Positions 36,373 to 57,253 of a DNA stretch of 64,000 bases are shown here, piece by piece; within the stretch, counting starts at the first letter, position 1; the number at the start of each line of letters is the position of its first letter. Under the pieces are notes generated by a model, which had not been told where the DNA came from, did no database searches, and was given only the letters and a program-made list of their open reading frames with translations. Both the position numbers and the translations under genes were made by a program. Location: assembly GCA_012690745.1 (NCBI GenBank), contig GCA_012690745.1_4086.2. The stretch is one strand, 5' to 3'. The DNA comes from a phage.

Positions 36373-36957
36373 ATGCGTAACTATACTAAATTCATCCGTT
36401 CACTTCATGCAATGGAAACCAACAAAGAGATCCTTTCAGCTTGTCGGTTAGCTGGACTGGAGATCGTCGGTGCGGGTTCTTCCCGTATTGTATTCGCTTT
36501 AAATGATCGGTTAGTGATTAAGGTCGCGAATTGTGATGCGGGTGTAGAACAAAATGAAACTGAATGTAAGGTATGGAATTTTTTAGATTATGACCGTCCG
36601 CACCTTAAACAGTTCTTTGCCAAGGTGCATATGCATTTAAGCGATCCTGATAATATGTTTATCGTTATGGATCGGTTGAGTACTGCAAGCAAAGGCAGTG
36701 TAAAGCACGTTAACGCGTGCAACGAATTAAAGTACAATATTAAACGTAATGCAATTGAACGCCAGCACCGCTTTGCTGATGCACTACAACACGTTGATGA
36801 TACACTGTCAACACTAACGATAAGAGATATCAGAAAACAGAATATCGGCCAGGATCGCAACGGCCTTATTAAAGTACTTGATTACGGTTTAACCCGCAAT
36901 ATCTGGAATCAGTACTATAAAAAGCGGGATGTAAAAGCCGTAACTATAACACGATAA
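36373..36957 (+). CDS. protein-kinase-like protein (putative Ser/Thr kinase fold)
   Basis: G-loop VGAGSSRIVF, Lys in VIKV, catalytic-loop-like IRDIRKQN, DYG in place of DFG, with kinase-like spacing; SD AAGGAG. Confidence 0.55.
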   Translation: MRNYTKFIRSLHAMETNKEILSACRLAGLEIVGAGSSRIVFALNDRLVIKVANCDAGVEQNETECKVWNFLDYDRPHLKQFFAKVHMHLSDPDNMFIVMDRLSTASKGSVKHVNACNELKYNIKRNAIERQHRFADALQHVDDTLSTLTIRDIRKQNIGQDRNGLIKVLDYGLTRNIWNQYYKKRDVKAVTITR

Positions 36958-40565: not shown

Positions 40566-40756
40566 TGCGTAAAGGGATCTAGTACTGAATCAGAAAAAAG
40601 TCAAGGCGTTTTTAAAATAATGCGTTAAAAAAATGCATAGGTAATCCCTTGACTTTTTTAAAATAAAAGGGATTGGACTATGGCAAAATGCGTAGGGGGC
40701 TAAAGGGCGGGTAACCTTAGCGACTTCGATAAAGGGGTATTACGAATAAAATGTTA

Positions 40757-40784
40757 TTGACTTTTTATACAATTCATATATTAT
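40757..40784 (+). promoter_or_regulatory. putative sigma70 promoter for array 3
   Basis: TTGACT-16-TATTAT; SD GGGAG before ATG 40815. Confidence 0.45.
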
Positions 40785-40814
40785 ATGATTGATATTATTT
40801 TCAAGGGAGTCCCT

Positions 40815-41012
40815 ATGCGTATTTTAACTCAAGCAGAACACCACGAAAGACTTATCAATAACATGGCTATGATAATGTATAAGTCACATGACCGTGGTAT
40901 TGCCTATAAGCGTGAATTAATTATGGCACTATTCATTGGAACTAACTTTCAGGAAAGGTATGTCAAGGATTGGATTTGGTATTTAATTGAAGATGTAACG
41001 AGTAAACTATGA
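40815..41012 (+). CDS. small protein, array-3 family (LGTNYQE motif)
   Basis: ORF track trimmed to MRILTQAEHH; motif FIGTNFQERYV. Confidence 0.6.
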   Translation: MRILTQAEHHERLINNMAMIMYKSHDRGIAYKRELIMALFIGTNFQERYVKDWIWYLIEDVTSKL

Positions 41013-41209
41013 AAATGCGTAAATTAACCGAAAAAGAATATCAAGCACTGTTACGTAAAAACTTCACAAAGATTTATAATACAGACTCACACGTAGAACG
41101 AATGGAGTTATACCTTTTGATTACATTGGGAACTAACTATCAGGATGCATGGGTAACGAAATATGTGGATACATTGAAAAATAAAACATTGTCCACGAGG
41201 AAACAATGA
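41009..41209 (+). CDS. small protein, array-3 family
   Basis: LGTNYQD motif; ATGA overlap. Confidence 0.6.
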   Translation: MKMRKLTEKEYQALLRKNFTKIYNTDSHVERMELYLLITLGTNYQDAWVTKYVDTLKNKTLSTRKQ

Positions 41210-41415
41210 AAACTATAACACGAACCCAATCATTCGGACTTATCTTGAAATACATGGACTTAATGGTGGATATCAGCAAAGACCTGCCTAAAACTGCAAT
41301 TGAAGTTGCAAGAGCAGAGATCCGCATGTTGGCTGTACTGAACACAAACCATCAGGAAGAGTATGTTGACGATTGGATTCGATTTTTAATAGAAGATATT
41401 AAGAGTAAACTATGA
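41206..41415 (+). CDS. small protein, array-3 family
   Basis: LNTNHQEEYV; ATGA overlap. Confidence 0.6.
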   Translation: MKTITRTQSFGLILKYMDLMVDISKDLPKTAIEVARAEIRMLAVLNTNHQEEYVDDWIRFLIEDIKSKL

Positions 41416-41624
41416 TTATATTAACACCTGAAGAATATAAGAAACGTTTTAAATCTGTCCAGGCTGAAATATTACTTATATACCTTTCAAATGCAGATCT
41501 TAACTTATCAAGGGTAATGGAGAAGGATTTACTTATGGGTGCATTTTTGGATACAGACTTTCAGGAGTATTATGTAGGGGAATACTTTATTGCACTTCAG
41601 AACCACATTAAGAGTAAACTATGA
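41412..41624 (+). CDS. small protein, array-3 family
   Basis: FLDTDFQEYYV; ATGA overlap. Confidence 0.6.
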   Translation: MIILTPEEYKKRFKSVQAEILLIYLSNADLNLSRVMEKDLLMGAFLDTDFQEYYVGEYFIALQNHIKSKL

Positions 41625-41836
41625 TTATTCTAGAAAAATCATATCAATATACTGAACGCATCGCTGCCAGACAACTTGAAATCCTCATAGTATATGAAGA
41701 GACTGATGATTTAAACTTAGCATTAGTATTGGAAAATGATATACTATTGGGTGCATTCCTCGGCACAGACTATCAGGAGCACTTCTTGAATGAGTATATA
41801 ATTGCACTCCAGAAATACATTAAGAGCAAACTATGA
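41621..41836 (+). CDS. small protein, array-3 family
   Basis: LGTDYQEHF; ATGA overlap. Confidence 0.6.
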   Translation: MIILEKSYQYTERIAARQLEILIVYEETDDLNLALVLENDILLGAFLGTDYQEHFLNEYIIALQKYIKSKL

Positions 41837-42051
41837 AACATTTAAGTAATTACGAGAAGAATAAAATTATCGTTGCTGCAATAAACAAATATTTTACACT
41901 TCCTCACACAGAAGGTTTATGTGTAAGGGAACACAGGATAAACACCACCGATATACGCATGATGGCTGTACTGGGGACGAACTTTCAGGAAGAGTATGTT
42001 GTTGCACACATAGTTGCCCTCACTGATTTAATAAGGGACAAATGCAAATGA
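41833..42051 (+). CDS. small protein, array-3 family
   Basis: LGTNFQEEYV. Confidence 0.6.
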   Translation: MKHLSNYEKNKIIVAAINKYFTLPHTEGLCVREHRINTTDIRMMAVLGTNFQEEYVVAHIVALTDLIRDKCK

Positions 42052-42356
42052 AACACTTAACTGATGATGAATTTGAAACTATAATTCGTAAACTAACCCC
42101 CATCACAAGGATAGTCTACGGTGACCCCAGCCTTACATGGAACCAAATGCGAGCTAAAGTTAATGAGCTATGGTTGCTGTACTTTATGGGGACTCAATAT
42201 CAAGATAAGTTTTGCACAGAATATATCGAACAATTAACGAATGTTATACAGGATAAACTAGATGATTATTTGCTCACAAAACATGAAGATTTTATCAGGA
42301 GTGGAGTATCAGACTGCCCTCTTCTCTCTTCTAAACACCCTCCGCACGAACAATAA
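42042..42356 (+). CDS. array-3 family member with C-terminal read-through extension
   Basis: 104 aa; usual ...IQDKL end continues into next gene in another frame. Confidence 0.45.
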   Translation: MQMKHLTDDEFETIIRKLTPITRIVYGDPSLTWNQMRAKVNELWLLYFMGTQYQDKFCTEYIEQLTNVIQDKLDDYLLTKHEDFIRSGVSDCPLLSSKHPPHEQ

Positions 42357-42534
42357 ACTTTATAATTCCCGTGAAGCTGATATCGTCAACGCTGATGTAT
42401 ATCTTAATAAATTCATAGGGACTAACTATCAAGAACTGTTCACTCTACGATATATCGCTGCATTGAGAAACGAAATATCAGATAAAACCCGTCAAGCCAG
42501 AAGAGAATGGAATAAACAATGCGACACAGACTAA
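42262..42534 (+). CDS. small protein, array-3 family
   Basis: IGTNYQELF; overlaps the upstream read-through. Confidence 0.55.
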   Translation: MIICSQNMKILSGVEYQTALFSLLNTLRTNNKLYNSREADIVNADVYLNKFIGTNYQELFTLRYIAALRNEISDKTRQARREWNKQCDTD

Positions 42535-42767
42535 ATCACAAAATGTATTGTAAACTATTACAGACACTGGCACAGAAACACTATGACACGGTATCTGGAA
42601 TATTACCCTATGATATCATGCGTTTACTTCACTGTGAGGCCGAGATGCTTGTACTGATGACAGGCACTGATAAAACAGCAATCGCCAGATCGATAGAGCA
42701 ATATATTGATGCACACTGCCAACACATGAGAACCGAAATCTGGAGGAAAGAGAATGATAATTCTTAA
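42519..42767 (+). CDS. small protein, array-3 family (divergent)
   Basis: ORF track. Confidence 0.55.
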   Translation: MRHRLNHKMYCKLLQTLAQKHYDTVSGILPYDIMRLLHCEAEMLVLMTGTDKTAIARSIEQYIDAHCQHMRTEIWRKENDNS

Positions 42768-42969
42768 TGAGTATCAGTATCATTGGAGGTTACAAACTAT
42801 CAAATCAAAAGTGTATAGTATTGTGTTAAACAAATCTATTGCACAAGAGGACAAATGTGTTATAATAGCTGAAATGAAGTTGGGTGTATTCGTAGGGACA
42901 AACTATCAAAACATCTACACTGACGTATTATTAAGTTCCTTACGTAACAAGGTGGTATCCAAAATATGA
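42754..42969 (+). CDS. small protein, array-3 family
   Basis: VGTNYQNIY. Confidence 0.6.
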   Translation: MIILNEYQYHWRLQTIKSKVYSIVLNKSIAQEDKCVIIAEMKLGVFVGTNYQNIYTDVLLSSLRNKVVSKI

Positions 42970-43184
42970 GAAATTTACAAGGCTTTGAATACATCAGACT
43001 CCTGAAAACATGTGGAAGCAGAAGGAGAATGATATCAAGCGATAAGAGCATCCAAGCTAACCTTAAGCACGCACTAGTAACTGAACTTTATGTAGGTGCA
43101 CTCTTAGGCACAAACTATCAACAAATGTATGTAGATCTATGGATTGACGCTCTACAGAAAGAGGTTAAAAGTAAATGCAAATGA
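42966..43184 (+). CDS. small protein, array-3 family
   Basis: LGTNYQQMYV. Confidence 0.6.
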   Translation: MRNLQGFEYIRLLKTCGSRRRMISSDKSIQANLKHALVTELYVGALLGTNYQQMYVDLWIDALQKEVKSKCK

Positions 43185-43393
43185 TTAATTTAAGTAAAGA
43201 CGAATTTTATGTTATACTGGCGAAAACTTATCCAGCACGTAAGGCCGTTTATGATAGTCACATTATTGAACCCTCAAAGAAGTTGATTTTAGTAAATGAG
43301 ATAAAGATGCTTTCAGTCTTAGGAACAAACTATCAAGAGAATGCTGTACTGATGTTAATTGATGCCCTCCAGCGAGAGGTTAAACGTAAATGA
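43175..43393 (+). CDS. small protein, array-3 family
   Basis: LGTNYQENAV. Confidence 0.6.
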   Translation: MQMINLSKDEFYVILAKTYPARKAVYDSHIIEPSKKLILVNEIKMLSVLGTNYQENAVLMLIDALQREVKRK

Positions 43394-43620
43394 AAATGAT
43401 TCATTTAACTTACCATGAATATCAAAAACGTTTAAATGCATCCAGAGATATAAGGATTCAAATATTCAATAACAAAAGATTGAAGCCTGATATCAGGAAA
43501 ATCAAAATCATAGAAGCCGTGTTGTGCAACTTCCTAGGGACTAACTATCAGGAAGGTAAGGTAGAAAACTATCTTATAGAACTCATGAATAGTATTGAAA
43601 ATAAATGTAAGGGTAATTAA
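43390..43620 (+). CDS. small protein, array-3 family
   Basis: LGTNYQEGKV. Confidence 0.6.
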   Translation: MKMIHLTYHEYQKRLNASRDIRIQIFNNKRLKPDIRKIKIIEAVLCNFLGTNYQEGKVENYLIELMNSIENKCKGN

Positions 43621-43621
43621 C

Positions 43622-43861
43622 ATGAAAATGATTAAATTATCTCAAGCAAAATATAAAGAACGCCTGGTAAAAATTGCACCTGGACTTAATGAAATCCATC
43701 ACGGAGAAGTCATTAAACACGGAAATAAGATGATTATGAAACTTGAGTTAAAGGTGGGTGCATTCATAGGAACAAACTATCAGGAGTATTATGTAGATGA
43801 ATACATAATCGCACTTAAGAGATACATTGGAAGAAAACTATATCTACAAACTAAAGAATAG
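43622..43861 (+). CDS. small protein, array-3 family
   Basis: trimmed to MKMIKLSQAKY; IGTNYQEYYV. Confidence 0.6.
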   Translation: MKMIKLSQAKYKERLVKIAPGLNEIHHGEVIKHGNKMIMKLELKVGAFIGTNYQEYYVDEYIIALKRYIGRKLYLQTKE

Positions 43862-43890
43862 TATTGAAAATAAATGTGAGGTTGATGAAC

Positions 43891-44154
43891 ATGCAAATGA
43901 TCAATTTAAGTAAAGATGAATATACCGAGCGTATGACAAAAATTACGCACAAACGTAATACAATCTATCACAACCCAGAAATTCAACACAGTAAGAAAAT
44001 GATTATGATGCGTGAGTTAAAGATGGGTGTATTCTTAGGAACAAACTATCAAGATACAGAAGTAAATCGCTTAATCGCGGAGTTACTACTGGAAATCAAA
44101 GGTAAGCTGTACTTTTATCAAATGACCCAACCACTAAGGTGTACTAAGAAATGA
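43891..44154 (+). CDS. small protein, array-3 family
   Basis: trimmed to MQMINLSKDEY; LGTNYQDTEV. Confidence 0.6.
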   Translation: MQMINLSKDEYTERMTKITHKRNTIYHNPEIQHSKKMIMMRELKMGVFLGTNYQDTEVNRLIAELLLEIKGKLYFYQMTQPLRCTKK

Positions 44155-44366
44155 TCAACATCACATTGCAAGAAAGATTCATCCGAATCAACTATGCAAT
44201 TACCAAATTAGATGCTACTATAGGCAACCAAAGTTTACCGTTCAAAACAAGAATGATATTAGAGTGCGAAGCCAAGTTAGGTGTACTGTTAGGGACGCAA
44301 CACCAACAACGATATGTGGAAATCTGGATTGATCTTTTAACCCAAAATGCACATGAGAGAATGTAA
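44151..44366 (+). CDS. small protein, array-3 family
   Basis: LGTQHQQRYV. Confidence 0.6.
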   Translation: MINITLQERFIRINYAITKLDATIGNQSLPFKTRMILECEAKLGVLLGTQHQQRYVEIWIDLLTQNAHERM

Positions 44367-44597
44367 ATGCAAAAGGAAATGATATACTTAACACATGATG
44401 AATTTCAAGAGAAGATGTTAAAAGCCAATAACATTACTCTTAAGTTCGTTCCAAATCAATCAATATATGAAATGTCTGCGAATGTATTGTTTCAGAAGCT
44501 ACCATACGTTCTTGGAACTGATAAACAAGAATTTATGGTTCAAAATATGATTGAGCATCTTGCAATGAGTATTATGGAAAAAGTAAATGCAAAATGA
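44367..44597 (+). CDS. small protein, array-3 family
   Basis: LGTDKQEFMV. Confidence 0.6.
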   Translation: MQKEMIYLTHDEFQEKMLKANNITLKFVPNQSIYEMSANVLFQKLPYVLGTDKQEFMVQNMIEHLAMSIMEKVNAK

Positions 44598-44847
44598 AAT
44601 GAAATACTTAACATATAATGAATACGTCGAGAGATTAGTTCGTGCCAAGAGATATACCAATAAACGTCCAATTGACCTAAACCAAACCCCAGCAGAAAGG
44701 AGTGCAGAAGTATTATTCCAATCACTACCATATCTTCTGGGAACTGATAGACAAGAGGAATATGTTGCACGTATGATTAGATATCTTAAAATCACTATTA
44801 AGGAAAAAGTAAATGCAAATGCAAATGAAATACTTAACAGACGATGA
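44587..44847 (+). CDS. small protein, array-3 family
   Basis: LGTDRQEEYV. Confidence 0.6.
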   Translation: MQNEMKYLTYNEYVERLVRAKRYTNKRPIDLNQTPAERSAEVLFQSLPYLLGTDRQEEYVARMIRYLKITIKEKVNANANEILNRR

Positions 44848-45070
44848 GTTAAAAGAACGATTAATTAAATCCAGAAAACTTACAAATCAACTTCCAAACG
44901 ACACAAACAAGTCACATGCCGAAAGGAGTGCAGAAGTTTTATACATTCAACTCCTGTACTTTCTTGGAACTGACAGACAAGAGTATTACATTGAAAGTAT
45001 GCTTCGATATCTTAAATTCTCTATAAAGGAAAAGGTACATGCTCAAGAATTTAAAAATCCTAACAGTTAA
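44813..45070 (+). CDS. small protein, array-3 family
   Basis: LGTDRQEYYI. Confidence 0.6.
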   Translation: MQMQMKYLTDDELKERLIKSRKLTNQLPNDTNKSHAERSAEVLYIQLLYFLGTDRQEYYIESMLRYLKFSIKEKVHAQEFKNPNS

Positions 45071-45281
45071 TGAATATCATAAGATTGTAATGAAGACTAA
45101 TAGTGCTTACGCTAAAAAATCAAACCCAAAGTACATACTGGAACACACATTCGAAGAACGTCAATTAGCTCTAGTTGAAGCAAAACTTCTTGCACTCCTA
45201 GGAACAAACTATCAGGAAGAATACATCAGAAAACTAATATACCTTTTAACTAAACACATCAGGAAAAGAAAAAAAGCATGA
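45039..45281 (+). CDS. small protein, array-3 family
   Basis: LGTNYQEEYI. Confidence 0.6.
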   Translation: MLKNLKILTVNEYHKIVMKTNSAYAKKSNPKYILEHTFEERQLALVEAKLLALLGTNYQEEYIRKLIYLLTKHIRKRKKA

Positions 45282-45508
45282 AACACTTGACAGATGATGA
45301 ACATGGGCTTATAGTAATGGATGTAATCAACATCGAATACAAAAAGTTGATACGCTATCGTTGTTATGAAGATAAGCAACTCGTTCTAGCAGAACAGAAG
45401 TTGTTTCGACTCTTAAACACAAACTACCAAGCACAATACGAAGAATCGTACATGTACCTTTTGGCGAGGAAAGCAAAAAGAGATTATGAAAATTTTAAGC
45501 AAAGGTGA
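45278..45508 (+). CDS. small protein, array-3 family
   Basis: LNTNYQAQY. Confidence 0.6.
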   Translation: MKHLTDDEHGLIVMDVINIEYKKLIRYRCYEDKQLVLAEQKLFRLLNTNYQAQYEESYMYLLARKAKRDYENFKQR

Positions 45509-45707
45509 TTCAGTAATATTACTTATAGAGAGTTCAAGTAAATTCTTAAACATAACACTGTCTGATATAGATGAAGATGACAAAGAAGTACTGAGAGCAG
45601 ATTTAAGAGTACTGTTACATCTCGGAACAAACCTACAAGAAGAATATGTAGAGTGCTACATCAATGAACTTAAAGAATCAGTACTGAGAAGATGCAAATG
45701 CGAATGA
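45486..45707 (+). CDS. small protein, array-3 family
   Basis: LGTNLQEEYV. Confidence 0.55.
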   Translation: MKILSKGDSVILLIESSSKFLNITLSDIDEDDKEVLRADLRVLLHLGTNLQEEYVECYINELKESVLRRCKCE

Positions 45708-45919
45708 TTACCGACGAAGAATACCTAACAATTATAAATGGATTGTTTTTGAAGTTGTTTGTTATTAACACATCAGATATACCAGATATGGATAAAATTA
45801 TTAAGAGAAATGAAATCTATGTTCAAGCTACACTAGGGACTAACTATCAAGAATGCTATATTAATGATTATATTAATACACTTAAACGAGCGATTGAACT
45901 AAAATGCCAAAACCACTAG
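45692..45919 (+). CDS. small protein, array-3 family
   Basis: LGTNYQECYI. Confidence 0.6.
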   Translation: MQMRMITDEEYLTIINGLFLKLFVINTSDIPDMDKIIKRNEIYVQATLGTNYQECYINDYINTLKRAIELKCQNH

Positions 45920-46119
45920 GAACAGCAGAATACATTGAACTCATGGGATTACACTTCTCATCCTTTCAGAAACTTATGCGAGATTCAAAGAATGATTTAG
46001 AATATACCATCAGAAGTTCAGAATTAAGAATGCTTCTCACCCTAGACACAGATTCCCAAGAGCGTTTTGTCAATGAGCACATTAGAGCACTTTTAATGGA
46101 AATTAAAAGTAAACTATGA
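45904..46119 (+). CDS. small protein, array-3 family
   Basis: LDTDSQERFV. Confidence 0.55.
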   Translation: MPKPLGTAEYIELMGLHFSSFQKLMRDSKNDLEYTIRSSELRMLLTLDTDSQERFVNEHIRALLMEIKSKL

Positions 46120-46331
46120 AGATAATATCAAACCAAGAGTACTTGGCACTATTCAGAAAGAATAATCACAAATTTATGGCACTTGATTCAAGAACTGATA
46201 TAAGTGAACTTGAAAAAAATCTTTTGCGTTCAGATATGATAGTACTGACACTCTTAGGAACACAGCATCAAGAGAGAACTGTTAATTCACACATAGGTAT
46301 TCTTATACAGATTGTACAGGAAAAGATATGA
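46116..46331 (+). CDS. small protein, array-3 family
   Basis: LGTQHQERTV. Confidence 0.6.
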   Translation: MKIISNQEYLALFRKNNHKFMALDSRTDISELEKNLLRSDMIVLTLLGTQHQERTVNSHIGILIQIVQEKI

Positions 46332-46549
46332 GAATCATATCACAACAAGATATTCTTAAGTTCACAAGGGTTCATGCATCTGAATTTGATGCTATATTAT
46401 CAAAAAGTTACAATGACCCTTATACACAAGATGTACATTACAGTGAATTATGGATGTATATACTTTTAGGTACAAATAAGCAAGAGCAAGCCGTACAGAA
46501 GTATTTGACAGCTTTACGTGATGCTACAGCTAATGGAGTATGTGTTTAA
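46328..46549 (+). CDS. small protein, array-3 family
   Basis: LGTNKQEQAV. Confidence 0.6.
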   Translation: MRIISQQDILKFTRVHASEFDAILSKSYNDPYTQDVHYSELWMYILLGTNKQEQAVQKYLTALRDATANGVCV

Positions 46550-46550
46550 T

Positions 46551-46793
46551 ATGAAAGTACTGACAGAACTAGAAATGTATCATAGATTTAATAAGTACTA
46601 TCATTTACTTAAGCCTATACAGAGGATTAAATGTCCATTTGAAGAGAAACAGGTTTTAATCTATGAGCACAAGTTCTTTGTATCATTAGGTACAGATCAA
46701 CAAGAGTACTATTTGACGTTGTACTTGATTACATTAATAGATTTAATTCACTATAAAACCAAACAAGCTAATAAAGAGAAATATGAAAACTAA
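46551..46793 (+). CDS. small protein, array-3 family
   Basis: trimmed to MKVLTELEMY; LGTDQQEYYL. Confidence 0.55.
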   Translation: MKVLTELEMYHRFNKYYHLLKPIQRIKCPFEEKQVLIYEHKFFVSLGTDQQEYYLTLYLITLIDLIHYKTKQANKEKYEN

Positions 46794-47127
46794 TATACAA
46801 CTCAAGGTATATAAATCATTTGAACATACATATATCAAAAGTAGTCTATGTAGAGATGTAATGGATTACAAGGGTAAGCCATTCACAATTACCTATGATT
46901 CTTATGTTAGTGATTTATATATATCATTTGTTAATTACGAAAATAAAATATACAAGCACGTTGATATTAAAGATTTAAGTACTTTATCACCAGAGGAATA
47001 CTTTCAGGAATCATTAGTATGGGATTTAGAGTTTCCTATGCCATTAGTACATAAGATGATAGTACTAATGAAAGAATCTAAACAGGAGCCTAATGGTGAT
47101 TATGAAGAACACACAGTTGAGTATTAA
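46783..47127 (+). CDS. array-4 family protein (EEYFQ-SLV-D motif)
   Basis: EEYFQESLVWD. Confidence 0.6.
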   Translation: MKTNIQLKVYKSFEHTYIKSSLCRDVMDYKGKPFTITYDSYVSDLYISFVNYENKIYKHVDIKDLSTLSPEEYFQESLVWDLEFPMPLVHKMIVLMKESKQEPNGDYEEHTVEY

Positions 47128-47497
47128 AAGTACTGATAATACTAAGAGTTATACAAGCTCAAGTACTGTGACAATCGAAGTGAATTCTATTAATGCTGGT
47201 AATGCAGTAGATAAGTTCTTTATTGCTCAAGGGTACAGGAAAGATATTCATCAATACTGTTCAGTATATGGGGAGTACAATTCTACTGAAGATATAATTT
47301 ATTGGTCAACACATCAAGATTATATAACTAAAATTGGCGTTCCAGATGTTAGTACTTTATCTGAAGAAGAATACTTTCAGTACAGCTTAGTACATGATGT
47401 ACCTATACCTTTAGAGTTGCTCAAGGGTATACAGGAAGAGGTTCATAAGCTTAAATCCATGAGTTCAGGTACTTTCATTAGAACAGTGCAATACTAG
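47093..47497 (+). CDS. array-4 family protein
   Basis: EEYFQYSLVHD. Confidence 0.6.
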   Translation: MVIMKNTQLSIKSTDNTKSYTSSSTVTIEVNSINAGNAVDKFFIAQGYRKDIHQYCSVYGEYNSTEDIIYWSTHQDYITKIGVPDVSTLSEEEYFQYSLVHDVPIPLELLKGIQEEVHKLKSMSSGTFIRTVQY

Positions 47498-47498
47498 C

Positions 47499-47527
47499 TT
47501 GACAGTACTTTTCATTACTGATATAGT
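47499..47527 (+). promoter_or_regulatory. internal sigma70-type promoter
   Basis: TTGACA-17-TATAGT. Confidence 0.45.
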
Positions 47528-47556
47528 ACTTGTACGTTAATCATAGGGTAAAAATT

Positions 47557-47802
47557 ATGTTAAATTTTTTAAATTTCCTTATCGTTTTGTGTATTGTTCT
47601 TGGGATTGCACCATTTGTATTGTATTTCATGGATTCAGATGAAATGCAGAAGATGAATTGCACAAGGACAGGACAGAGTAGAGAAGAGACGATTCTTATG
47701 CCTGTTACGGTTATTGTTAACAACATGCCCATTACAAACATGGTCCCTACCCTAACGACAACGTACCAGTACTCTTGTACAGATGGAGAGAGGTGGAGAT
47801 GA
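47557..47802 (+). CDS. small membrane protein (hydrophobic N-terminal helix)
   Basis: trimmed to MLNFLNFLIVLCIVLGIAPFVLYF, downstream of the internal promoter. Confidence 0.5.
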   Translation: MLNFLNFLIVLCIVLGIAPFVLYFMDSDEMQKMNCTRTGQSREETILMPVTVIVNNMPITNMVPTLTTTYQYSCTDGERWR

Positions 47803-48119
47803 AATTTAATATAGCAAAAACATCTAATATATGTATATTTGGTTATGCCGAAGAGTTGGGTGATATTGACATTCTTTTGTACAAAAAAGATGGTGTTATG
47901 CATTTCAAGTACCAGGATGAAGAGGCAGACAATTATTCTTTACCTAATTTAGTACAAATGCAGGAAGAGGAATTATTCCAGTACAGCTTAGTATATGACA
48001 TTGATATTTGCACGATGCCAGTACTAATTAATATTCAAAAAGTGATGCTCGATGTGTTTGATAGGCTAATACAAGGCACACAAGGAAGAACCATATATGT
48101 CAATGTACAAGACAATTAA
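47799..48119 (+). CDS. array-4 family protein
   Basis: trimmed to MKFNIAKTSN; EEELFQYSLVYD; SD GGAGAGAGGTGGAG. Confidence 0.6.
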   Translation: MKFNIAKTSNICIFGYAEELGDIDILLYKKDGVMHFKYQDEEADNYSLPNLVQMQEEELFQYSLVYDIDICTMPVLINIQKVMLDVFDRLIQGTQGRTIYVNVQDN

Positions 48120-48312
48120 TCAAGAATGGAAGACCCAAAAGTACAGGGAATTCAGTACTAGTTTAACAAAAGATGCATTGAATTTAAAAAGAACAGAGTT
48201 TGATATGTTTATTTTTCTTGGAACACGTTCACAGGAACAATACATTCATTATTATATAAGTTCATTGCGAACGGAGATCGTATGCAAAACACAGGGTATT
48301 ATAAAAAAGTAA
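48097..48312 (+). CDS. small protein, array-3-like (LGTRSQEQY) inside array 4
   Basis: ORF track. Confidence 0.5.
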   Translation: MSMYKTINQEWKTQKYREFSTSLTKDALNLKRTEFDMFIFLGTRSQEQYIHYYISSLRTEIVCKTQGIIKK

Positions 48313-48548
48313 ACCAATATTTGTACGCATCGAAGTACAGGGATTTTTGTTTAAAGGGTGGTGATGAAGATTTTTCTTTGCGATTATCAGAATTTAATCT
48401 GTTATTTTATCTTGGTACAAAAGAACAAGAAGAAATGGCACAGAAATTTATCAAGCACCTTTTACAAAAAATTAATATGCAAATTTTGATGCTTAAGTTA
48501 CAGAATGAGATAAATGAATATGAATCCAGAAATAGTTCAGGATCTTAA
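48282..48548 (+). CDS. small protein, array-3-like (LGTKEQEEM) inside array 4
   Basis: ORF track. Confidence 0.5.
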   Translation: MQNTGYYKKVNQYLYASKYRDFCLKGGDEDFSLRLSEFNLLFYLGTKEQEEMAQKFIKHLLQKINMQILMLKLQNEINEYESRNSSGS

Positions 48549-48906
48549 AAAAGTAATATTTCTTTTGAATACCAGAAGTGAATTGTATACAGAGTTAAAA
48601 GAGATTAATGCATTTTATCAGAATTTTGTAATCCAAGAGATCAGTGATTTAATTACAGATGCATTATTTGAATTATCGGAGAAATACAAAGGAACAGAGT
48701 TCAGTGTTAAGAATGTTATTCGTCCAATTACAAGGAAAATTATATTATCACATTTTACATTTGACAATAAAGATTTATTCAGTCATAATCCAAGTACAGC
48801 TTTATATTTTATTCCTGATTCAGACAAAAATCATCCTATTCATTACGGATGGATTTTGTCGTACATAGTACAAGGAAAGGAGTATCCTATTAAATGGAAC
48901 GATTAG
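48514..48906 (+). CDS. hypothetical protein
   Basis: ORF track; family motif not evident. Confidence 0.5.
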   Translation: MNMNPEIVQDLKKVIFLLNTRSELYTELKEINAFYQNFVIQEISDLITDALFELSEKYKGTEFSVKNVIRPITRKIILSHFTFDNKDLFSHNPSTALYFIPDSDKNHPIHYGWILSYIVQGKEYPIKWND

Positions 48907-49054
48907 GGCGATTAGATTATTACACAATTAATACAAATTATTTGTTGCGTAATATAAAATCCGATTACAAAATATGGATAAAGAACAGAGATAGTATGTG
49001 TTATGAATTTTATTTAGATTATGCCATCAAACGCTTTTTAAGAGAAGAACATTA

Positions 49055-49246
49055 ATGCACACACCGCACAAAGAGCACAAAAATACAAAAACGATAAATG
49101 TTTTAAATGATTCTTTATTGGTGAGTATAAATTTATATTATAAAATTCATTTAAATGGTGGTATTGAAAATTTTAGTTATTATTTGAGTGCAATATCGCA
49201 AGAGCATTTAATATACCAAGATCATTTATTGCACCCGAATCCATAA
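49055..49246 (+). CDS. hypothetical small protein
   Basis: ORF track only. Confidence 0.35.
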   Translation: MHTPHKEHKNTKTINVLNDSLLVSINLYYKIHLNGGIENFSYYLSAISQEHLIYQDHLLHPNP

Positions 49247-49254
49247 GGCAAATT

Positions 49255-49800
49255 ATGAATGATATAGAATTATTAGCACACAAGATTAGTACAATAATGC
49301 TTATCCTCAATAACAACCATCCTATATCGCAGATAGATGGAATCCTGAGTCAGAGGACAGGTGGTAGTTTATATTTGACATTAACAGAGGTTATCGCAAG
49401 GAATTACATTGATATTGAAATCGAGAACAGTGATGCATCAGGAAAGGTTGATGTAGGTGCATTAATCAGTTCAAATCCAGTATCAGCATCACCATTGACA
49501 AGAAATGTAAGTACAGGATTCGAAGGGTATTTGTGGTACAATACCAATGATGATTATTTTATATATCAGCATTCCAATACAAATTATGATGAAGACAAAT
49601 TTCAGTTCATAGACCCTTATGATGAAGCTGAAGTATTTCAAAAATCATTAATCACAAAACCGCATGAGATGATGTATCTAATGTTATTCAGTACAATGCA
49701 TTTGAATCCATTAATTAAAGGTTTAAAATTTTATATTCAATTGAATTTAGTCCATGTAGTTTATGATTTATTAATGCAAGGATATAGTTATGAAGTATAA
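49255..49800 (+). CDS. array-4 family protein
   Basis: DEAEVFQKSLITKP. Confidence 0.55.
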   Translation: MNDIELLAHKISTIMLILNNNHPISQIDGILSQRTGGSLYLTLTEVIARNYIDIEIENSDASGKVDVGALISSNPVSASPLTRNVSTGFEGYLWYNTNDDYFIYQHSNTNYDEDKFQFIDPYDEAEVFQKSLITKPHEMMYLMLFSTMHLNPLIKGLKFYIQLNLVHVVYDLLMQGYSYEV

Positions 49801-50107
49801 AATGCTTAATACAGCATCAGGGATATATGTAGAATTAGAATCCGATTATTCAGATGGATGGAATTTTATTAAACGACACGATAGAAATACATGGTACATG
49901 GCACATTTGGATAATGACGTAATAATAGATAATTTTGTCGATTTTAATACATTATCAGAAGAAGAATTTTTCCAAATGCAATTTGTGCTTGATACAAATG
50001 GATTTGATTTGCTATTATTAAGGAATATTCAGAAAGCGGTTAATGAATTCATAATCCAAAATAATTCAGGTAAAATGGGGATGTTCCATGATCTGGAAGT
50101 ACAATGA
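49790..50107 (+). CDS. array-4 family protein
   Basis: EEEFFQMQFVLD. Confidence 0.6.
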   Translation: MKYKMLNTASGIYVELESDYSDGWNFIKRHDRNTWYMAHLDNDVIIDNFVDFNTLSEEEFFQMQFVLDTNGFDLLLLRNIQKAVNEFIIQNNSGKMGMFHDLEVQ

Positions 50108-50663
50108 AAGCAATGATTACAATGAAATTCAGTACACCTACGCTAATGCAATCCTTATGGGACAAAAGTTAGCTTGTATTGTTGCAGCCTTATATAATGC
50201 CCAGAAATATCACAAGCGTCATTTCCACAAATGTATTGGTATTATTCCATCGAAGTACAATACATATATTGCGTGCACGAGTCATTTTGATAAACGATTC
50301 AATACACCTGATACCCCAAATTCCTGTAGTGTTATTGGTCTTTTGGATTTCGCACCTGGTGCTGTTATTGGAAAGAATGATTTAGAGTACGCATGGTATA
50401 ATAAAAATGCCCCGTTAGTAATGGTAAAATATGATACAGAAACGAATAAAACAATAGAGTACAATACATATAAATCAGAGGAAGAATTTTTCCAAGGTTC
50501 ATTGCTTGTACCAGTGCGTTTGTTATTTTATAATGTCATAATGAGTACAGTACACAATAGTCCATTACACAAGAATCACAAAATTAATTTCAATTTTTGT
50601 GCTTATGCGATTGATGGTGTGTATGAGTGTTTAATGGAGGTATTGAGTTATGAAGCTGAATAA
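50088..50663 (+). CDS. array-4 family protein
   Basis: EEEFFQGSLLVP. Confidence 0.6.
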   Translation: MIWKYNESNDYNEIQYTYANAILMGQKLACIVAALYNAQKYHKRHFHKCIGIIPSKYNTYIACTSHFDKRFNTPDTPNSCSVIGLLDFAPGAVIGKNDLEYAWYNKNAPLVMVKYDTETNKTIEYNTYKSEEEFFQGSLLVPVRLLFYNVIMSTVHNSPLHKNHKINFNFCAYAIDGVYECLMEVLSYEAE

Positions 50664-50991
50664 TACATTTGATATTAATAAGTTAAGAGAATGGTTTTAT
50701 AGTATTGAAATTGAAGCCATCCCGTATCATAGATATGAACAATATAATTTAACCAGTATTGATATCAGTGAGTTGTACGCGTATTATCAAAGTGCATTAG
50801 AGATGCATAAGTTATTTTTGAGTACAGATTTTGTTCTAAATTACAATTTTGAGGAATTTAAAAATTATAATTTAGTACAGAAATATGTAGTAGCAAAGTA
50901 CATGTACCTTCAAGGAATTACAAGTAATTTGGAATTCAATACAGTCCTTGCTTTAGTTGAGGTAATTTTATGCAGTACATGTATGATTTAG
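50650..50991 (+). CDS. array-4 family protein (divergent)
   Basis: ORF track. Confidence 0.5.
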   Translation: MKLNNTFDINKLREWFYSIEIEAIPYHRYEQYNLTSIDISELYAYYQSALEMHKLFLSTDFVLNYNFEEFKNYNLVQKYVVAKYMYLQGITSNLEFNTVLALVEVILCSTCMI

Positions 50992-51476
50992 AGTTTAGTT
51001 TAGATGCTGCCTTTAAATTTGTTCACAAGATAGAAACAATATACAGTACATTATGTGCAATACAATCAGTATCATCTGAGTTTGATGTTGGTGAAAAATA
51101 TCAGGTATGGAATAATACATTTCTAAACAAAGAACGTTGCTCTACGGGGTTTAATATTTTAACATTTAATCCCAGCAATTGTTACCCAGAGAAGCATGAA
51201 CGTTATCCGAATGACGACATGTGGTTTGATTACACAAAAGATGGTGATATGTCATCCCTTGTAGTTCCTGATGATTTTAATGCCGAAGATTTAACGGAAG
51301 AGTGGTGGTTTCAACAGAATTTAGTACACGATGATATTGATTTATTTTTTTATGTAGTATTTAAAATGCTTTACCACAACAATATATTAAAAGATAGTGT
51401 GTTTTTTTCATGTCTATATATTGATGATTTGTACAATGAAATCCAAATCAACATTCCCAGCACGCCTGTATCGTAA
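50970..51476 (+). CDS. array-4 family protein
   Basis: EEWWFQQNLVHDD. Confidence 0.6.
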   Translation: MQYMYDLEFSLDAAFKFVHKIETIYSTLCAIQSVSSEFDVGEKYQVWNNTFLNKERCSTGFNILTFNPSNCYPEKHERYPNDDMWFDYTKDGDMSSLVVPDDFNAEDLTEEWWFQQNLVHDDIDLFFYVVFKMLYHNNILKDSVFFSCLYIDDLYNEIQINIPSTPVS

Positions 51477-51501
51477 GATATGGGCTTTTTTCGTTTTGGT
51501 A

Positions 51502-51530
51502 TTGACAAAGAAGTGCAAAGCTGTTATCAT
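51502..51530 (+). promoter_or_regulatory. internal sigma70-type promoter
   Basis: TTGACA-17-TATCAT; SD AAAGGAGAA. Confidence 0.45.
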
Positions 51531-51558
51531 GTGTAATCATTTTAAAGGAGAACATATA

Positions 51559-52071
51559 GTGAGTTTCATAATCCCAAGTACATACGAAGATGCATCAAGT
51601 GCAGTTCATAAGATTCATTATATTTTTAATTTAATTATTAGATCTGCAAAAATTAAAATGTATGCACCTCTTGTGGAATACGATAAAAATGAGGAAATTT
51701 TTGTTAGCACAGACCAAATTATTTTTCCATATTTCAATGAAGATAGATTGTGGTTCATGCATTTAGCTGCATTACAAAAATATAAAATGTCAATTCGTAA
51801 TAATTTGGATATACCGTTATATCATCCTGATATTGGAGAGGATGAATATTTTCAGTACAGTACAGTACACCGCCATGAAGATATCTTTGTTGCTATGCTT
51901 ATTGCTAAATTGAATACCGTTGATTTGGAGCAGTACAAATACAATAATAAATCATGTAAGATCATAATCCCTGCATTCATAGCTCTTTATGATTATGTGG
52001 TGCATAACAAAAAAGATGATACATATGCTTTCAATGAAGAGTATTTGAATTTTTTTAAGGAGAACATATGA
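51559..52071 (+). CDS. array-4 family protein
   Basis: ORF track 51397..52071 trimmed to GTG after promoter and SD; DEYFQYSTVH. Confidence 0.5.
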   Translation: MSFIIPSTYEDASSAVHKIHYIFNLIIRSAKIKMYAPLVEYDKNEEIFVSTDQIIFPYFNEDRLWFMHLAALQKYKMSIRNNLDIPLYHPDIGEDEYFQYSTVHRHEDIFVAMLIAKLNTVDLEQYKYNNKSCKIIIPAFIALYDYVVHNKKDDTYAFNEEYLNFFKENI

Positions 52072-52595
52072 GCAGTGAAGTGCTGAAATCAATGACATTC
52101 AATGAAATTGGTACATTTAAAGATAAGATCATTGATTGCATTGAATACATGATTTGTAGTAATATCGAAAGTATCGAGATATTTAACAAGACAAATCGCT
52201 CTTACCATATGATGTACATTGCAAACAATAATGGTATCATTCCATTTATTTCGGATAGTACAATATGGTACGCATGTGATACGAAAAAAACCACAATAGG
52301 TTTACATTCATTTGAGACACATTATGATCTAATTATTCCTGAACATTGTATGCAAGAAGAAGAATATTTTCAAATGCAATGTATACATTCACCATTAGTG
52401 TTGTTTAGTTTATATATTATACCTTATATCACCAAATGTGTTCATGAGAATAAAGCTCCGTGGAATCATGAATTTGTATCGTTGAAGTTATTGTATAATG
52501 TATTAGTAGAATATTATGATTACAGGCACAATGGTACAATCAGTGATGTATGGGATTTTGAATCGCTAAGGGTGAAAACATACACAGGTGAATGA
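52068..52595 (+). CDS. array-4 family protein
   Basis: EEEYFQMQCIHSP. Confidence 0.6.
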   Translation: MSSEVLKSMTFNEIGTFKDKIIDCIEYMICSNIESIEIFNKTNRSYHMMYIANNNGIIPFISDSTIWYACDTKKTTIGLHSFETHYDLIIPEHCMQEEEYFQMQCIHSPLVLFSLYIIPYITKCVHENKAPWNHEFVSLKLLYNVLVEYYDYRHNGTISDVWDFESLRVKTYTGE

Positions 52596-53211
52596 TATGA
52601 CCAGAATTAAAATGTATGATTTGATGCTGTACAGTAAAATTGCCATTCCAGTGCTTAATAAAGTGCTGGATGCATTCATTGCCAAATACCCTGAGAATTC
52701 AGTGTTATGTATTCCATTTAGTGTTCCAGATAAAGATGATATATTCCAAGTGAATGTCAGTACACGTGGTATTACATTGCAGCAGAAATATATGGATACG
52801 GAATATTATGGAATAAAGTTGGATTCAGTACAGGGTTCTAAATCAGCCTATGATTTTTTTGTTCCTAATAACATCGAGTCATGGGAAACAAACATTTCAA
52901 AGAAAGATGAAAATGATGTTCCTATTAGTGGTGTGTTCAACAATAAAGTTTTTTATTATTACGAAACCGACAAATTCCCTGAAGAGTTATATTACAATTC
53001 AGAAATGAATGAAGATGTAGATGCATTCATGTTTCAATTATCGTTAGTACATGATATCATTGATGTTCAAGAGTTAAGAGCAGAAATCAATTTAGCTAAA
53101 GAGTTATCGGACATGCTCCCACCGTTTAGTATGCTTTTTTGTGAAGGAGGTTATTTTTCAAAAGAAGTGTTTGAACATTTCGTAGATGTTGTAAAAGGGT
53201 TGGATATATAG
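52588..53211 (+). CDS. array-4 family protein
   Basis: DAFMFQLSLVHD. Confidence 0.6.
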   Translation: MNDMTRIKMYDLMLYSKIAIPVLNKVLDAFIAKYPENSVLCIPFSVPDKDDIFQVNVSTRGITLQQKYMDTEYYGIKLDSVQGSKSAYDFFVPNNIESWETNISKKDENDVPISGVFNNKVFYYYETDKFPEELYYNSEMNEDVDAFMFQLSLVHDIIDVQELRAEINLAKELSDMLPPFSMLFCEGGYFSKEVFEHFVDVVKGLDI

Positions 53212-53212
53212 T

Positions 53213-53407
53213 ATGCTTATAATTGATATTAAACAAAAATACCGTAAGTTTGATTGGTTCACCGATAGTTTCCAGCTTGAATTATTACATATGAATATCA
53301 GTGAAACATTATGTGCAGAAACACAAGATGAATTTGATGATAGAGTGATGAACATAGTAATGCTTTCTTGCTTTAAACATTTTGGTTATTTTTTCGGACA
53401 GTATTGA
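53213..53407 (+). CDS. small hypothetical protein
   Basis: ORF track. Confidence 0.45.
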   Translation: MLIIDIKQKYRKFDWFTDSFQLELLHMNISETLCAETQDEFDDRVMNIVMLSCFKHFGYFFGQY

Positions 53408-53415
53408 GGTAAAAA

Positions 53416-53931
53416 ATGCATCAACACAAGCATCATTCATATGATTTTGCAATTAACATTATGAAGTTTATTCGAGCGTTGGAGGATGGGAAGCTTAGTC
53501 ATAAGTACAGGAAAGAGGGTAACAATTGGTTCAGAAATGATTCCGAGTTCAGTTGTCATAAAATCGTGTATAGTAATCAGTACAGTGCCAATTACCTACA
53601 AGATGTAGTGATGTGTTTTGAATACGTGTTGCAGTTCAGGGGTTCAATCCAAGATGAGTTGATGGAGAACATGTACATCCGATACCTTCCAATGCTCAAA
53701 GATGAAAATGTATTATTAAATTCAATATACCAACGAGTTCGTGAAATTGAGTGCAGGGATATATTAGATACAGAAGAATCGTATTTCCAGCAATCCCTGA
53801 TTTATTCACCTGATTTATTACAGGTACATAATTTGTTTAATACATTACGTCAGAACATCAGTACAGACATATTTTTGTCATTATCGGATTATGATACATT
53901 TGTCAAAGATTTAGAGGAAATAGGTTTATGA
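53416..53931 (+). CDS. array-4 family protein
   Basis: EESYFQQSLIYSPD. Confidence 0.6.
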   Translation: MHQHKHHSYDFAINIMKFIRALEDGKLSHKYRKEGNNWFRNDSEFSCHKIVYSNQYSANYLQDVVMCFEYVLQFRGSIQDELMENMYIRYLPMLKDENVLLNSIYQRVREIECRDILDTEESYFQQSLIYSPDLLQVHNLFNTLRQNISTDIFLSLSDYDTFVKDLEEIGL

Positions 53932-54272
53932 GTCGATTTTCGGTTTATATAGTAAACGTCAGTAAAGATGGTAGTTTAATTGAATTTGATGTAGTTGATA
54001 ACAATGATAATTCATATGGTATTAAGGTACAGGACAATGATGTACAGTTCAGTACAAGGACAAATTTTGAGAATCCAGTCCAAGTTCCGAATTTCATAGA
54101 AGATGAAGCTGCACGATTCCAATACGAAACGGCCTTTGATAATGTACATATGCATATTATTATGCAACAAAGTTTAGTTCAATTAGTTCCTTTGTTCAGA
54201 CAAAATATATATGTACATGAAGTGTCGATTAATGGCATTCAAAGTTCCGTATTGTTCGATACAAATATGTAA
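53928..54272 (+). CDS. array-4 family protein
   Basis: EAARFQYETAFDN. Confidence 0.55.
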   Translation: MSRFSVYIVNVSKDGSLIEFDVVDNNDNSYGIKVQDNDVQFSTRTNFENPVQVPNFIEDEAARFQYETAFDNVHMHIIMQQSLVQLVPLFRQNIYVHEVSINGIQSSVLFDTNM

Positions 54273-54282
54273 GGAAAGTACA

Positions 54283-54834
54283 ATGAGTTCAATGAGTTTA
54301 TTAGATACATTAGAAAAAGACAGAAGTGCAATTAAGCGTTTAAAAGAGCAAGTACAAAAGATTGTATACAACGTTGATAAGTTTGAGGTTCCCGGAAGAT
54401 TTGGTGATATTTCCCATACGGAGATCAAATCCCTTAAGTCAGATTTGTTGATTAAAAATAAAAATGGGTTGATTTTAGTTTTGAGTTCAGATATGATGGG
54501 GGCAACACATAGTTATAATGCCGTATCGGTGCGTTCCGAGTGTGAAGGTATATATCTATCACAGGGTTTCAATAGCGAGACACAGGTTTGTTTTTGTGAT
54601 GCAGTACATGACCCTATGAAGTTCACGAGAAGTGAAGCCCAAGCGTTATTAGAGCTATCAGACGAGAGTTTGTTTCAGTACAGTACAATGTATGACAATG
54701 ATAAGCTTCGTTGTATGTACGCTGTAAAGCATTATACACAGGAGTTTTCTGGATTTGCATACCTTTTAGTTAGAACCAATACCAGATATATTGATATGTT
54801 AGAAGATTACATCGATAAAGTTGTTAATGTATGA
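54283..54834 (+). CDS. array-4 family protein
   Basis: ORF track 54211..54834 trimmed to MSSMSLL; DESLFQYSTMYDND. Confidence 0.6.
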   Translation: MSSMSLLDTLEKDRSAIKRLKEQVQKIVYNVDKFEVPGRFGDISHTEIKSLKSDLLIKNKNGLILVLSSDMMGATHSYNAVSVRSECEGIYLSQGFNSETQVCFCDAVHDPMKFTRSEAQALLELSDESLFQYSTMYDNDKLRCMYAVKHYTQEFSGFAYLLVRTNTRYIDMLEDYIDKVVNV

Positions 54835-54854
54835 TTTTGTGATGGGATGGGATA

Positions 54855-55022
54855 ATGCTGATGAAAGAGTTATTTGAAGATCAGTTCAATACATATGTGG
54901 ATAATATTCTTTATTCCAGCCGTGCTAGTCAACGAGGAAATCGTGCTTACAATATAGATTACCTATTAGTGGTGCTGAGTTCACAGTACACCTACGCTGT
55001 ACAGAGGACATATTATGAATAA
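54855..55022 (+). CDS. small hypothetical protein (55 aa)
   Basis: manual ORF MLMKELFEDQFNTYV. Confidence 0.35.
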   Translation: MLMKELFEDQFNTYVDNILYSSRASQRGNRAYNIDYLLVVLSSQYTYAVQRTYYE

Positions 55023-55218
55023 TTTTAGAGATGTTGCTAAGGAGAAGTTCAAGTGCAGTTTAGATTTTGGGTTAAATGATTTTCTGACATGCACAATGTA
55101 CAGGAATGATGATTATGAGCAATCCGTAATTTCGTTGCACAGATATTTCGAAATAATTTACGCAAGATATCTTAGAAGGTTAGAGGGAATAGGGGATTGG
55201 AATTATGATTACGTTTGA
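55015..55218 (+). CDS. small hypothetical protein
   Basis: ORF track. Confidence 0.45.
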   Translation: MNNFRDVAKEKFKCSLDFGLNDFLTCTMYRNDDYEQSVISLHRYFEIIYARYLRRLEGIGDWNYDYV

Positions 55219-56003: not shown

Positions 56004-56004
56004 T

Positions 56005-57244: not shown

Positions 57245-57253
57245 GATTATAAA

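Follow-up and report, generated by a model that had tools for sequence, protein, structure and literature searches.

Why does a virus keep 27 related genes for very small proteins side by side, and what might so many related products do? The question is raised by a tandem array in a 64,000-nucleotide stretch of phage DNA (contig GCA_012690745.1_4086.2; referred to here as the window), in which the listing of open reading frames (ORFs) shows 27 consecutive plus-strand ORFs of 66–104 amino acids (aa) at 40785–46793. The window belongs to an Asteriusvirus jumbo coliphage of the 121Q/PBECO4 group, infecting Escherichia coli, and is 95 % identical to phage SHEFM2K. Within it, the array region shares 94–95 % identity with the Escherichia phages SHEFM2K, G17, Sharanji and phAPEC6, and 15 Asteriusvirus records of 348–386 kb cover the window to 83–100 %. 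As a feature, the array is real and well delimited, and represents a lineage-specific expansion of tandem paralogs in a jumbo phage. Its products may constitute an early-expressed panel of diversified stoichiometric binders of host proteins, serving takeover or counter-defence, an interpretation to which we give slightly less than an even chance.

A tandem array of one protein family

An earlier note on this DNA, made from the sequence alone, had proposed 27 tandem members of a single family with an LGTNYQE core, and this proposal is borne out by the ORF listing, by profile matches and by motif counts. All 27 array members match a family hidden Markov model (HMM) with E values of 3e-17 to 4e-27, a self-match that is circular since the HMM was built from the same 27 sequences. 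Independently of it, 30 of the 31 members (27 in the array plus four distant ones) match the PHROG cluster phrog_4148 (best E 8.6e-27) and 16 of the 31 match phrog_28039 (best E 6.5e-40). Translated in six frames, the 64 kb window contains 20 instances of the motif GT[NDQ]xQ[ED], all of them on the plus strand (19 within the array and one at 61464), as compared to an expectation of 0.03 in shuffled sequence.

Alignment of the 27 members yields (i) an N-terminal consensus M-(K/I)-x-L-(T/S)-x-x-E-(Y/F), (ii) a hydrophobic (L/F)(L/I)-G-T-(N/D/Q)-x-Q-(E/D) turn as the core, and (iii) an amphipathic C-terminal helix with terminal K-(L/C). The conserved C-terminal helix had been anticipated by the earlier note; the N-terminal halves had been described as diverse, which the N-terminal consensus contradicts. 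The family alignment does not contain any conserved stretch of 7–10 residues. PHROG 4148/28039 is a lineage-specific multigene family of soluble proteins of about 70 aa, and the annotation of SHEFM2K carries phrog 4148. The members and related parts are as follows (window coordinates; E values refer to the family HMM).

40815–41012, plus strand: member 1, 65 aa, E 1.2e-20
41015–41209, plus strand: member 2, 64 aa, alternative start 41009, E 4.9e-19
41206–41415, plus strand: member 3, 69 aa, E 4.9e-22
41412–41624, plus strand: member 4, 70 aa, E 3.2e-23
41621–41836, plus strand: member 5, 71 aa, E 7e-20
41833–42051, plus strand: member 6, 72 aa, E 5.9e-25
42048–42356, plus strand: member 7, 102 aa, C-terminal extension overlapping member 8, E 1e-25
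42283–42534, plus strand: member 8, 83 aa, alternative start 42262, E 1.9e-20
42519–42767, plus strand: member 9, 82 aa, core motif with 6-residue insertion GTDKTAIARSIEQ, E 3.3e-17, alignment
42754–42969, plus strand: member 10, 71 aa, E 1.5e-23
42966–43184, plus strand: member 11, 72 aa, E 2.6e-26
43181–43393, plus strand: member 12, 70 aa, alternative start 43175, E 7.4e-24
43396–43620, plus strand: member 13, 74 aa, member with modelled structure, E 2.5e-26
43628–43861, plus strand: member 14, 77 aa, E 3.8e-27
43809–43910, plus strand: frameshifted remnant of the family C-terminus, HMM positions 56–71, E 0.003
43897–44154, plus strand: member 15, 85 aa, E 2.8e-26
44151–44366, plus strand: member 16, 71 aa, E 1.3e-22
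44379–44597, plus strand: member 17, 72 aa, alternative start 44367, E 1.3e-21
44599–44847, plus strand: member 18, 82 aa, alternative start 44587, E 5.2e-24
44825–45070, plus strand: member 19, 81 aa, alternative start 44813, E 4e-25
45039–45281, plus strand: member 20, 80 aa, E 5.2e-22
45278–45508, plus strand: member 21, 76 aa, E 3e-17
45486–45707, plus strand: member 22, 73 aa, E 2.8e-22
45698–45919, plus strand: member 23, 73 aa, alternative start 45692, E 1.4e-24
45904–46119, plus strand: member 24, 71 aa, E 8.1e-21
46116–46331, plus strand: member 25, 71 aa, E 8.2e-23
46328–46549, plus strand: member 26, 73 aa, E 1.3e-21
46551–46793, plus strand: member 27, 80 aa, stop overlapping the array-4 start 46783, E 1.3e-21, ORF list
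48097–48312, plus strand: distant member inside array 4, 71 aa, E 4.3e-11
48282–48548, plus strand: distant member inside array 4, 88 aa, E 2.9e-6, modelled structure
61187–61369, plus strand: distant member, 60 aa from the conserved Met, ORF from 61148, E 4.6e-6
61347–61538, plus strand: distant member, 63 aa, E 1.4e-11

Overlap of stop and start codons in ATGA had been put forward as a general property of the array. Counted from the conserved Met, such overlaps of 4 nucleotides (nt) are present at 12 of the 26 junctions, while the remaining ones are overlaps of 10–74 nt or gaps of at most 35 nt. The junctions leave no space for signals between genes, the stop codon of member 27 lies within the beginning of the adjacent array 4 (first gene from 46783), and a scan of the array revealed no convincing plus-strand terminator inside it. 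This junction anatomy is consistent with translational coupling across the array, which by its layout, i.e., abutting or overlapping stops and starts and no internal terminator, would represent a translationally coupled operon.

The four further members predicted at 48097, 48282, 61187 and 61347 were recovered by the HMM with E values of 4e-11, 3e-6, 5e-6 and 1e-11, respectively. The HMM database search that the note had proposed returned only unannotated relatives and no known housekeeping domain. Assignment to a known domain was rejected, as sequence profile searches of Pfam, NCBIfam, PADLOC and PDB gave nothing: scattered single-member matches with E > 5e-4 were all that Pfam, NCBIfam and PADLOC returned, and no family was matched by more than one member.

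When 1.84 billion representative proteins were searched exhaustively with a profile, 94 family members were obtained, all of 52–122 aa, and word-indexed searches returned hypothetical proteins only, originating from Asteriusvirus phages, E. coli-assembly contigs of about 350 kb and metagenomes. By tblastn against 50,697 phage records, the family was found only in 36 Asteriusvirus-type records; a second search iteration added Klebsiella phage RCIP0023 (350 kb), harbouring nine members in clusters of 2, 3, 3 and 1. On two divergent contigs from metagenomes, 15 and 13 members follow one another without interruption, one of these runs being located behind TTGACA-16-TATTAT; for one distant metagenomic member, isolated phages provided no match. 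Since divergent contigs carry such runs, one of them promoter-led, the tandem, promoter-led architecture predates the genus. Many members (P0095–P0263) bear the database label 'hypothetical protein [Escherichia coli]' and lie on contigs of 343–360 kb, which are whole Asteriusvirus genomes within bacterial isolate assemblies, in agreement with recent reports on lytic phage genomes in bacterial assemblies.

Location behind the terminal repeat

The direct terminal repeat (DTR) of phage vB_Ec-M-J is annotated at 1–21525 (its end corresponding to position 3718 of the extracted locus L001), and the array starts 99 nt further on. Phage fEgEco12 possesses a DTR of 20,993 bp, confirmed by PhageTerm and restriction digests, and its end maps to about the same window position. 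Because the DTR ends at about 40717, just upstream of the array, the latter is the first operon, or transcription unit, of the unique region, right after the left DTR of about 20.7 kb. The boundary comprises the following features.

40700–40735, plus strand: right end of the DTR at about 40717, within GGGCGGGTAACC/TTAGCGACTTCGA (vB_Ec-M-J annotation, fEgEco12 mapping)
40757–40784, plus strand: sigma-70-type promoter TTGACT-16 nt-TATTAT, located 40 nt beyond the DTR (promoter scan)
40803–40809, plus strand: AAGGGAG, ribosome-binding site of member 1 (GGAG shared by the six phages compared)

The promoter is found in the form TTGACT-16-TA(T/A)(T/A)AT in all six phages, a comparison which takes in the divergent Turkey5; the -35 and -10 hexamers are kept, while the spacer varies. 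The ATG downstream of GGAG is likewise conserved in all six, and the start at 40815 given by the earlier note coincides with the conserved Met preceded by this ribosome-binding site. The divergent metagenomic array mentioned above shares the upstream promoter arrangement. The sequence at the DTR end is also kept in the six phages; the conserved boundary block at 40680–40735 reads GGGATTGGACTATGG...ATGCGTAGGGGG...GCGGGTAACC/TTAGCGACTTCGA and could represent the terminase recognition or cutting region.

The presumed DTR (window ~20000–40717) is packed with small plus-strand genes and contains 12 perfect TTGACA-16/17-TATAAT promoters, all on the plus strand and of the class to which the array promoter also belongs; promoter-like sites in 20000–40717 number 98, as compared to 68.5 ± 8 in shuffles. 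Its genes include those for a DksA/TraR zinc finger (31639–31896) and a GNAT acetyltransferase (31960–32316) as well as one with a weak kinase match (36373–36957). From the small plus-strand genes, the 12 perfect promoters and the DksA/TraR, GNAT and kinase-like genes, the DTR is read as bearing the probable signature of an immediate-early region transcribed by host polymerase. Judged from the sequence, the array is probably transcribed early and as one message.

Four plus-strand sites in the DTR (29624, 33666, 36969 and 39228) form a hairpin with a 12-bp stem that has the -35 hexamer inside and the -10 hexamer after it (AAAGGGATTGACTCCGGTCAGTCCCTTT GCTATTAT); each may represent either a promoter lying within a stem-loop or a terminator combined with a promoter. 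Inside the array, the codons of the conserved N-terminal His-Leu-Thr-Asp (CAC TTG ACA GAT) at gene starts create TTGACA -35-like hexamers, one of which (45287–45315) has TATAGT 17 nt downstream (11/12 match). Known RNAs or tRNAs were not found in the window.

Fold, selection and turnover

The structure prediction suggested in the earlier note gave a confident small helical fold. AlphaFold modelled member 13 as four helices with a predicted local distance difference test score (pLDDT) of 96.8 and a predicted template modelling score of 0.81, and the distant member at 48282–48545 with the same helical layout (pLDDT 92.1). Fold searches returned no structural relative outside the family, neither Bcl-2-like nor of another viral family, and a helix-turn-helix fold was not recognised by structure comparison. 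The conserved columns correspond to core hydrophobic positions and capping residues, with T49 present in 27/27 array members, Q52 and L63 in 26/27 each, and G48 in 23/27. In the predicted structure, a beta bridge pairs residue 2 with the invariant Thr of LGTNYQE. A scaffold common to every paralog, composed of two T/N-x-x-E helix-capping boxes, this one-residue beta bridge and a hydrophobic core, is partly shown. Most of the non-scaffold residues, and the net charge, vary among the paralogs: isoelectric points (pI) range from 4.5 to 10.0 across the array, 5 of the 27 members being acidic (pI < 5.5), and this spread argues against a single shared nucleic-acid ligand. The proteins contain 0–3 Cys each and display no Cys/His pattern.

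Small helical proteins with a helix-Gly-Thr-turn-helix segment, many of them basic (pI 8–10), might be suspected to be DNA-binding or transcription-regulatory proteins programming phage or host transcription, for which the zinc-ribbons of phage G provide a precedent (PMC7824862). The array matches no Pfam DNA-binding domain, however, and five members are acidic; such a role is considered rather improbable.

Identity between the paralogs averages 25 % (neighbours 30 %, maximum 54 %), and the closest pairs show a synonymous divergence (dS) of 0.8–2.6, i.e., saturated or nearly so, with ratios of non-synonymous to synonymous divergence (dN/dS) of 0.2–0.56. In view of the low mean identity and the saturated dS, the paralogs are old and anciently expanded. 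Pooled dN/dS between orthologs amounts to 0.32 with SHEFM2K, 0.31 with vB_Ec-M-J and 0.34 with 121Q, as compared to 0.13–0.17 for DTR genes and 0.22 for the downstream arrays. Based on these ortholog ratios, each array copy is maintained under purifying selection, with an approximately two-fold relaxation relative to its neighbours.

This pattern bears on the possibility that the array is neutral filler, i.e., tandem duplicates piled up after capsid enlargement by a ratchet and devoid of a specific function. Hua et al. 2017 (mBio, PMC5646251) took a tandem array of 121Q as evidence of genome growth by duplication, and copy number does differ among isolates. However, none of the 27 ORFs is disrupted although synonymous divergence between paralogs is saturated, the ortholog dN/dS of 0.31–0.34 indicates constraint, the promoter and ribosome-binding site are conserved, and the scaffold is kept in the Klebsiella and metagenomic relatives, so that mere filler is very improbable.

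Isolates differ in their repertoires because whole cassettes have been lost, gained or replaced. In one genome pair, per-gene nucleotide identity ranges from 100 % down to no alignment. Phage 121Q lacks exactly members 12, 14, 17 and 20, with gaps of 194–267 nt, and carries unrelated alleles at some other array positions. For member 14, a 100 % identical protein is present in 19 phage records, and the best match in 12 others reaches 35–54 %. Seven verified close relatives possess arrays of 23–28 genes (121Q 23, phAPEC6 28), and Turkey5 has 21 members with a longest uninterrupted run of 12; CMSTMSU was left out of the copy-number counts as an unverified record with many frameshifts, in which 10 of 29 matches are near full length. 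None of the window paralogs has orthologs of at least 80 % identity in all nine genomes compared. Relative to Turkey5, median amino-acid identity is 96 % for 28 DTR genes, 36 % for the array and 35 % for the next arrays, and the break in identity sits at the repeat end. The array and three neighbouring arrays fill the region around the terminal repeat, which is the most variable part of the genome among near-identical isolates.

Members 4 and 5 (54 % identical; 41412–41836) are found in swapped order in SHEFM2K and phAPEC6 (as compared to positions 21410–21837 of locus L004), which suggests that neighbouring cassettes have undergone local rearrangement or gene conversion. Substitutions between orthologs peak at positions 3, 5–7, 54, 57, 58, 61 and 68, corresponding to the N-terminus and to a single face of the C-terminal helix, which flank the conserved turn; with about 54 comparisons per column, this profile is suggestive only.

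These observations have to be weighed against the view that all 27 products do the same job via a conserved GT(N/D)xQE surface, the array supplying a high early dose or a hetero-oligomer. The high conservation of T49, Q52, G48 and L63 and the polycistronic, coupled-type layout fit such a view, as does the clustering of ortholog substitutions around the motif, which would be expected for a shared interface being tuned. However, a dosage array should be homogenised or recent, in contrast to the identity of 25 %, the pI range of 4.5–10 and the saturated dS found here. Moreover, the independent loss or replacement of single cassettes among isolates speaks against an obligate multi-subunit assembly, and helix capping together with the beta bridge may, on the predicted model, account for the conserved polar residues. 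A single shared function, at high dose or in a hetero-oligomer, is considered unlikely.

Possible function and relation to known systems

The array orthologues of phAPEC6 (gp467c–gp489c) are absent from the published table of 62 virion proteins identified by mass spectrometry (MS), which does contain a 4.7 kDa protein. Based on this absence (literature evidence from one phage), the array products are probably intracellular and non-structural. The same absence speaks against virion-packaged internal proteins like IPI–III of phage T4, which would be delivered along with the DNA and protect it as it enters the cell. The T4 internal proteins are strain-variable paralogs too, and the array products would resemble them in being small, soluble and strain-variable; yet the array promoter is of the early sigma-70 and not of the late type, and the aligned N-termini show no capsid-targeting or protease-site leader. 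A packaged role is therefore hardly credible.

The reading of the array as a panel of early-expressed binders of host proteins draws on (i) the early host-type promoter, the position beside a host-takeover-like DTR and the tiny, non-enzymatic fold of products without enzyme-like features, (ii) the conserved scaffold with divergent residues and variable charge and the long retention of about 27 paralogs, and (iii) the cassette-wise turnover between isolates beside a nearly invariant region. In such a scheme, host sigma-70 RNA polymerase would initiate early in infection at the conserved promoter, 40 nt beyond the repeat, and transcribe the whole array as one message, on which ribosomes would pass from cistron to cistron via the overlapping or abutting stop and start codons. 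Each product may then recognise a different host or competitor protein, the binders serving host takeover or neutralising strain-variable defence or toxin proteins. One may further speculate on a scaffold-binder repertoire, in which one minimal fold would carry about 30 specificities in a single early operon and cassettes would be exchanged at conserved gene junctions, yielding a broad counter-defence or host-range arsenal; this wider proposal is conceivable but doubtful.

Several points weigh against the binder reading. Database searches revealed no similarity to a known anti-defence or host-takeover protein, and functional assignment consequently rests on context and evolutionary pattern. 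The literature provided neither a functional study of the array genes nor an Asteriusvirus transcriptome, and MS of virions can miss small proteins. The near-invariance of T49 and Q52 might reflect a ligand site common to all members, in which case a single shared function would be favoured. Positive selection was not found: pairwise dN/dS is below 1 for the paralog pairs, and ortholog values of 1 or above arise only from at most 7 counted differences or from one gene, member 26.

The window harbours three other arrays besides the present one, which is the third in order. Array 4 (46783–63918 on the plus strand, plus 16964–17635) comprises at least 25 paralogs of 100–225 aa sharing the motif (S/T)EEE(Y/F)FQ(E/Q)S(L/T)V(W/Y)D with invariant F-Q, which resembles the TEV/3C-type protease site ExxYFQ(S/G); one more copy of the motif is present in a 223-aa protein inside array 2. 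Homology between arrays 3 and 4, considered on account of their YQE and FQE motifs, was rejected (hhalign probability 0.1 %). Array 1 (311–15044, minus strand) consists of about 12 paralogs of 360–440 aa with RCC1-like beta-propeller repeats (PF25390, PF13540), which, judged by size and gene numbering alone, look like counterparts of the ~41 kDa 'DNA condensation proteins' gp003–010, gp549 and gp551 of phAPEC6 virions. Array 2 (15148–19739, plus strand), located across the terminal repeat from array 3, encodes some 20 proteins of ~60 aa in tandem, many of which start with M(H/N)KE(Y/F)Y and most of which end in a hydrophobic tail such as LLLIYRY. Two members tested gave no Pfam match, and kinship with array 3 was rejected, array 2 being a visibly different family.

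A large tandem array is already reported for this phage group. Hua et al. devoted one sentence to it as evidence of genome growth in 121Q, and the point is repeated in the phAPEC6 paper (PMC7247149). The sentence does not specify which array is meant: it is possibly the same locus, or the locus together with dispersed members. Genes 319–341 of 121Q form the orthologous array; the family counts 25 genes in 121Q, and three other arrays are present in the window. The sentence was given without family definition, structure, promoter, repeat position, selection analysis or isolate comparison. The clusters phrog_4148 and phrog_28039 represent the same family by sequence, but are automatic, unannotated and without functional information. 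What is new is the delimitation of the family and its fold, its position at the DTR boundary downstream of a conserved promoter of early type, the pattern of selection and turnover, and the wider distribution.

Bacillus phage G encodes about 35 zinc-ribbon proteins, a lineage-specific expansion proposed to represent transcription factors (Iyer et al. 2021, PMC7824862). In both cases, a jumbo phage encodes some 30 versions of one very small protein whose role is unknown, but phage G belongs to another phage lineage, and its zinc-ribbon fold contrasts with the lack of a Cys/His pattern in the array. Many small genes at or near a long DTR, with strong early promoters, are known from the host-takeover module of SPO1, the pre-early genes of T5 and the Tre genes of Staphylococcus phage K. 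By analogy, the array may be likened to these sets with respect to small genes beside the DTR, host-type early promoters and products outside the virion; the latter sets, however, are unrelated single genes with their own promoters, whereas the array consists of 27 paralogs in one gap-free operon outside the repeat. Terminal paralog arrays varying among isolates are also found in African swine fever virus (MGF100/110/360/505) and in poxviruses (Bcl-2-like and ankyrin families). Their near-terminal arrays, low identity on a conserved small fold, variable content and flanking conserved region could be viewed as parallels, although there is no homology and the present array has a bacterial host, is polycistronic and encodes much smaller proteins.

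Asteriusvirus phages are under development for therapy of pathogenic E. coli, and more than 80 % of their genes are without known function. If members of the array bind specific host proteins, this would help to explain differences between isolates in host range and defence evasion, and each phage would offer about 30 small, well-folded inhibitors for probing E. coli immunity or physiology. Should the wider repertoire proposal be true, the array would be to a bacterial virus what the terminal multigene families are to poxviruses and African swine fever virus, and many new inhibitors directed at immune or housekeeping proteins of E. coli could be obtained from it. If its members are redundant, the locus would still clearly illustrate that a phage can retain tandem duplicates over long periods. 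In this system, it could be studied how a virus keeps and reshuffles a large repertoire of paralogs.

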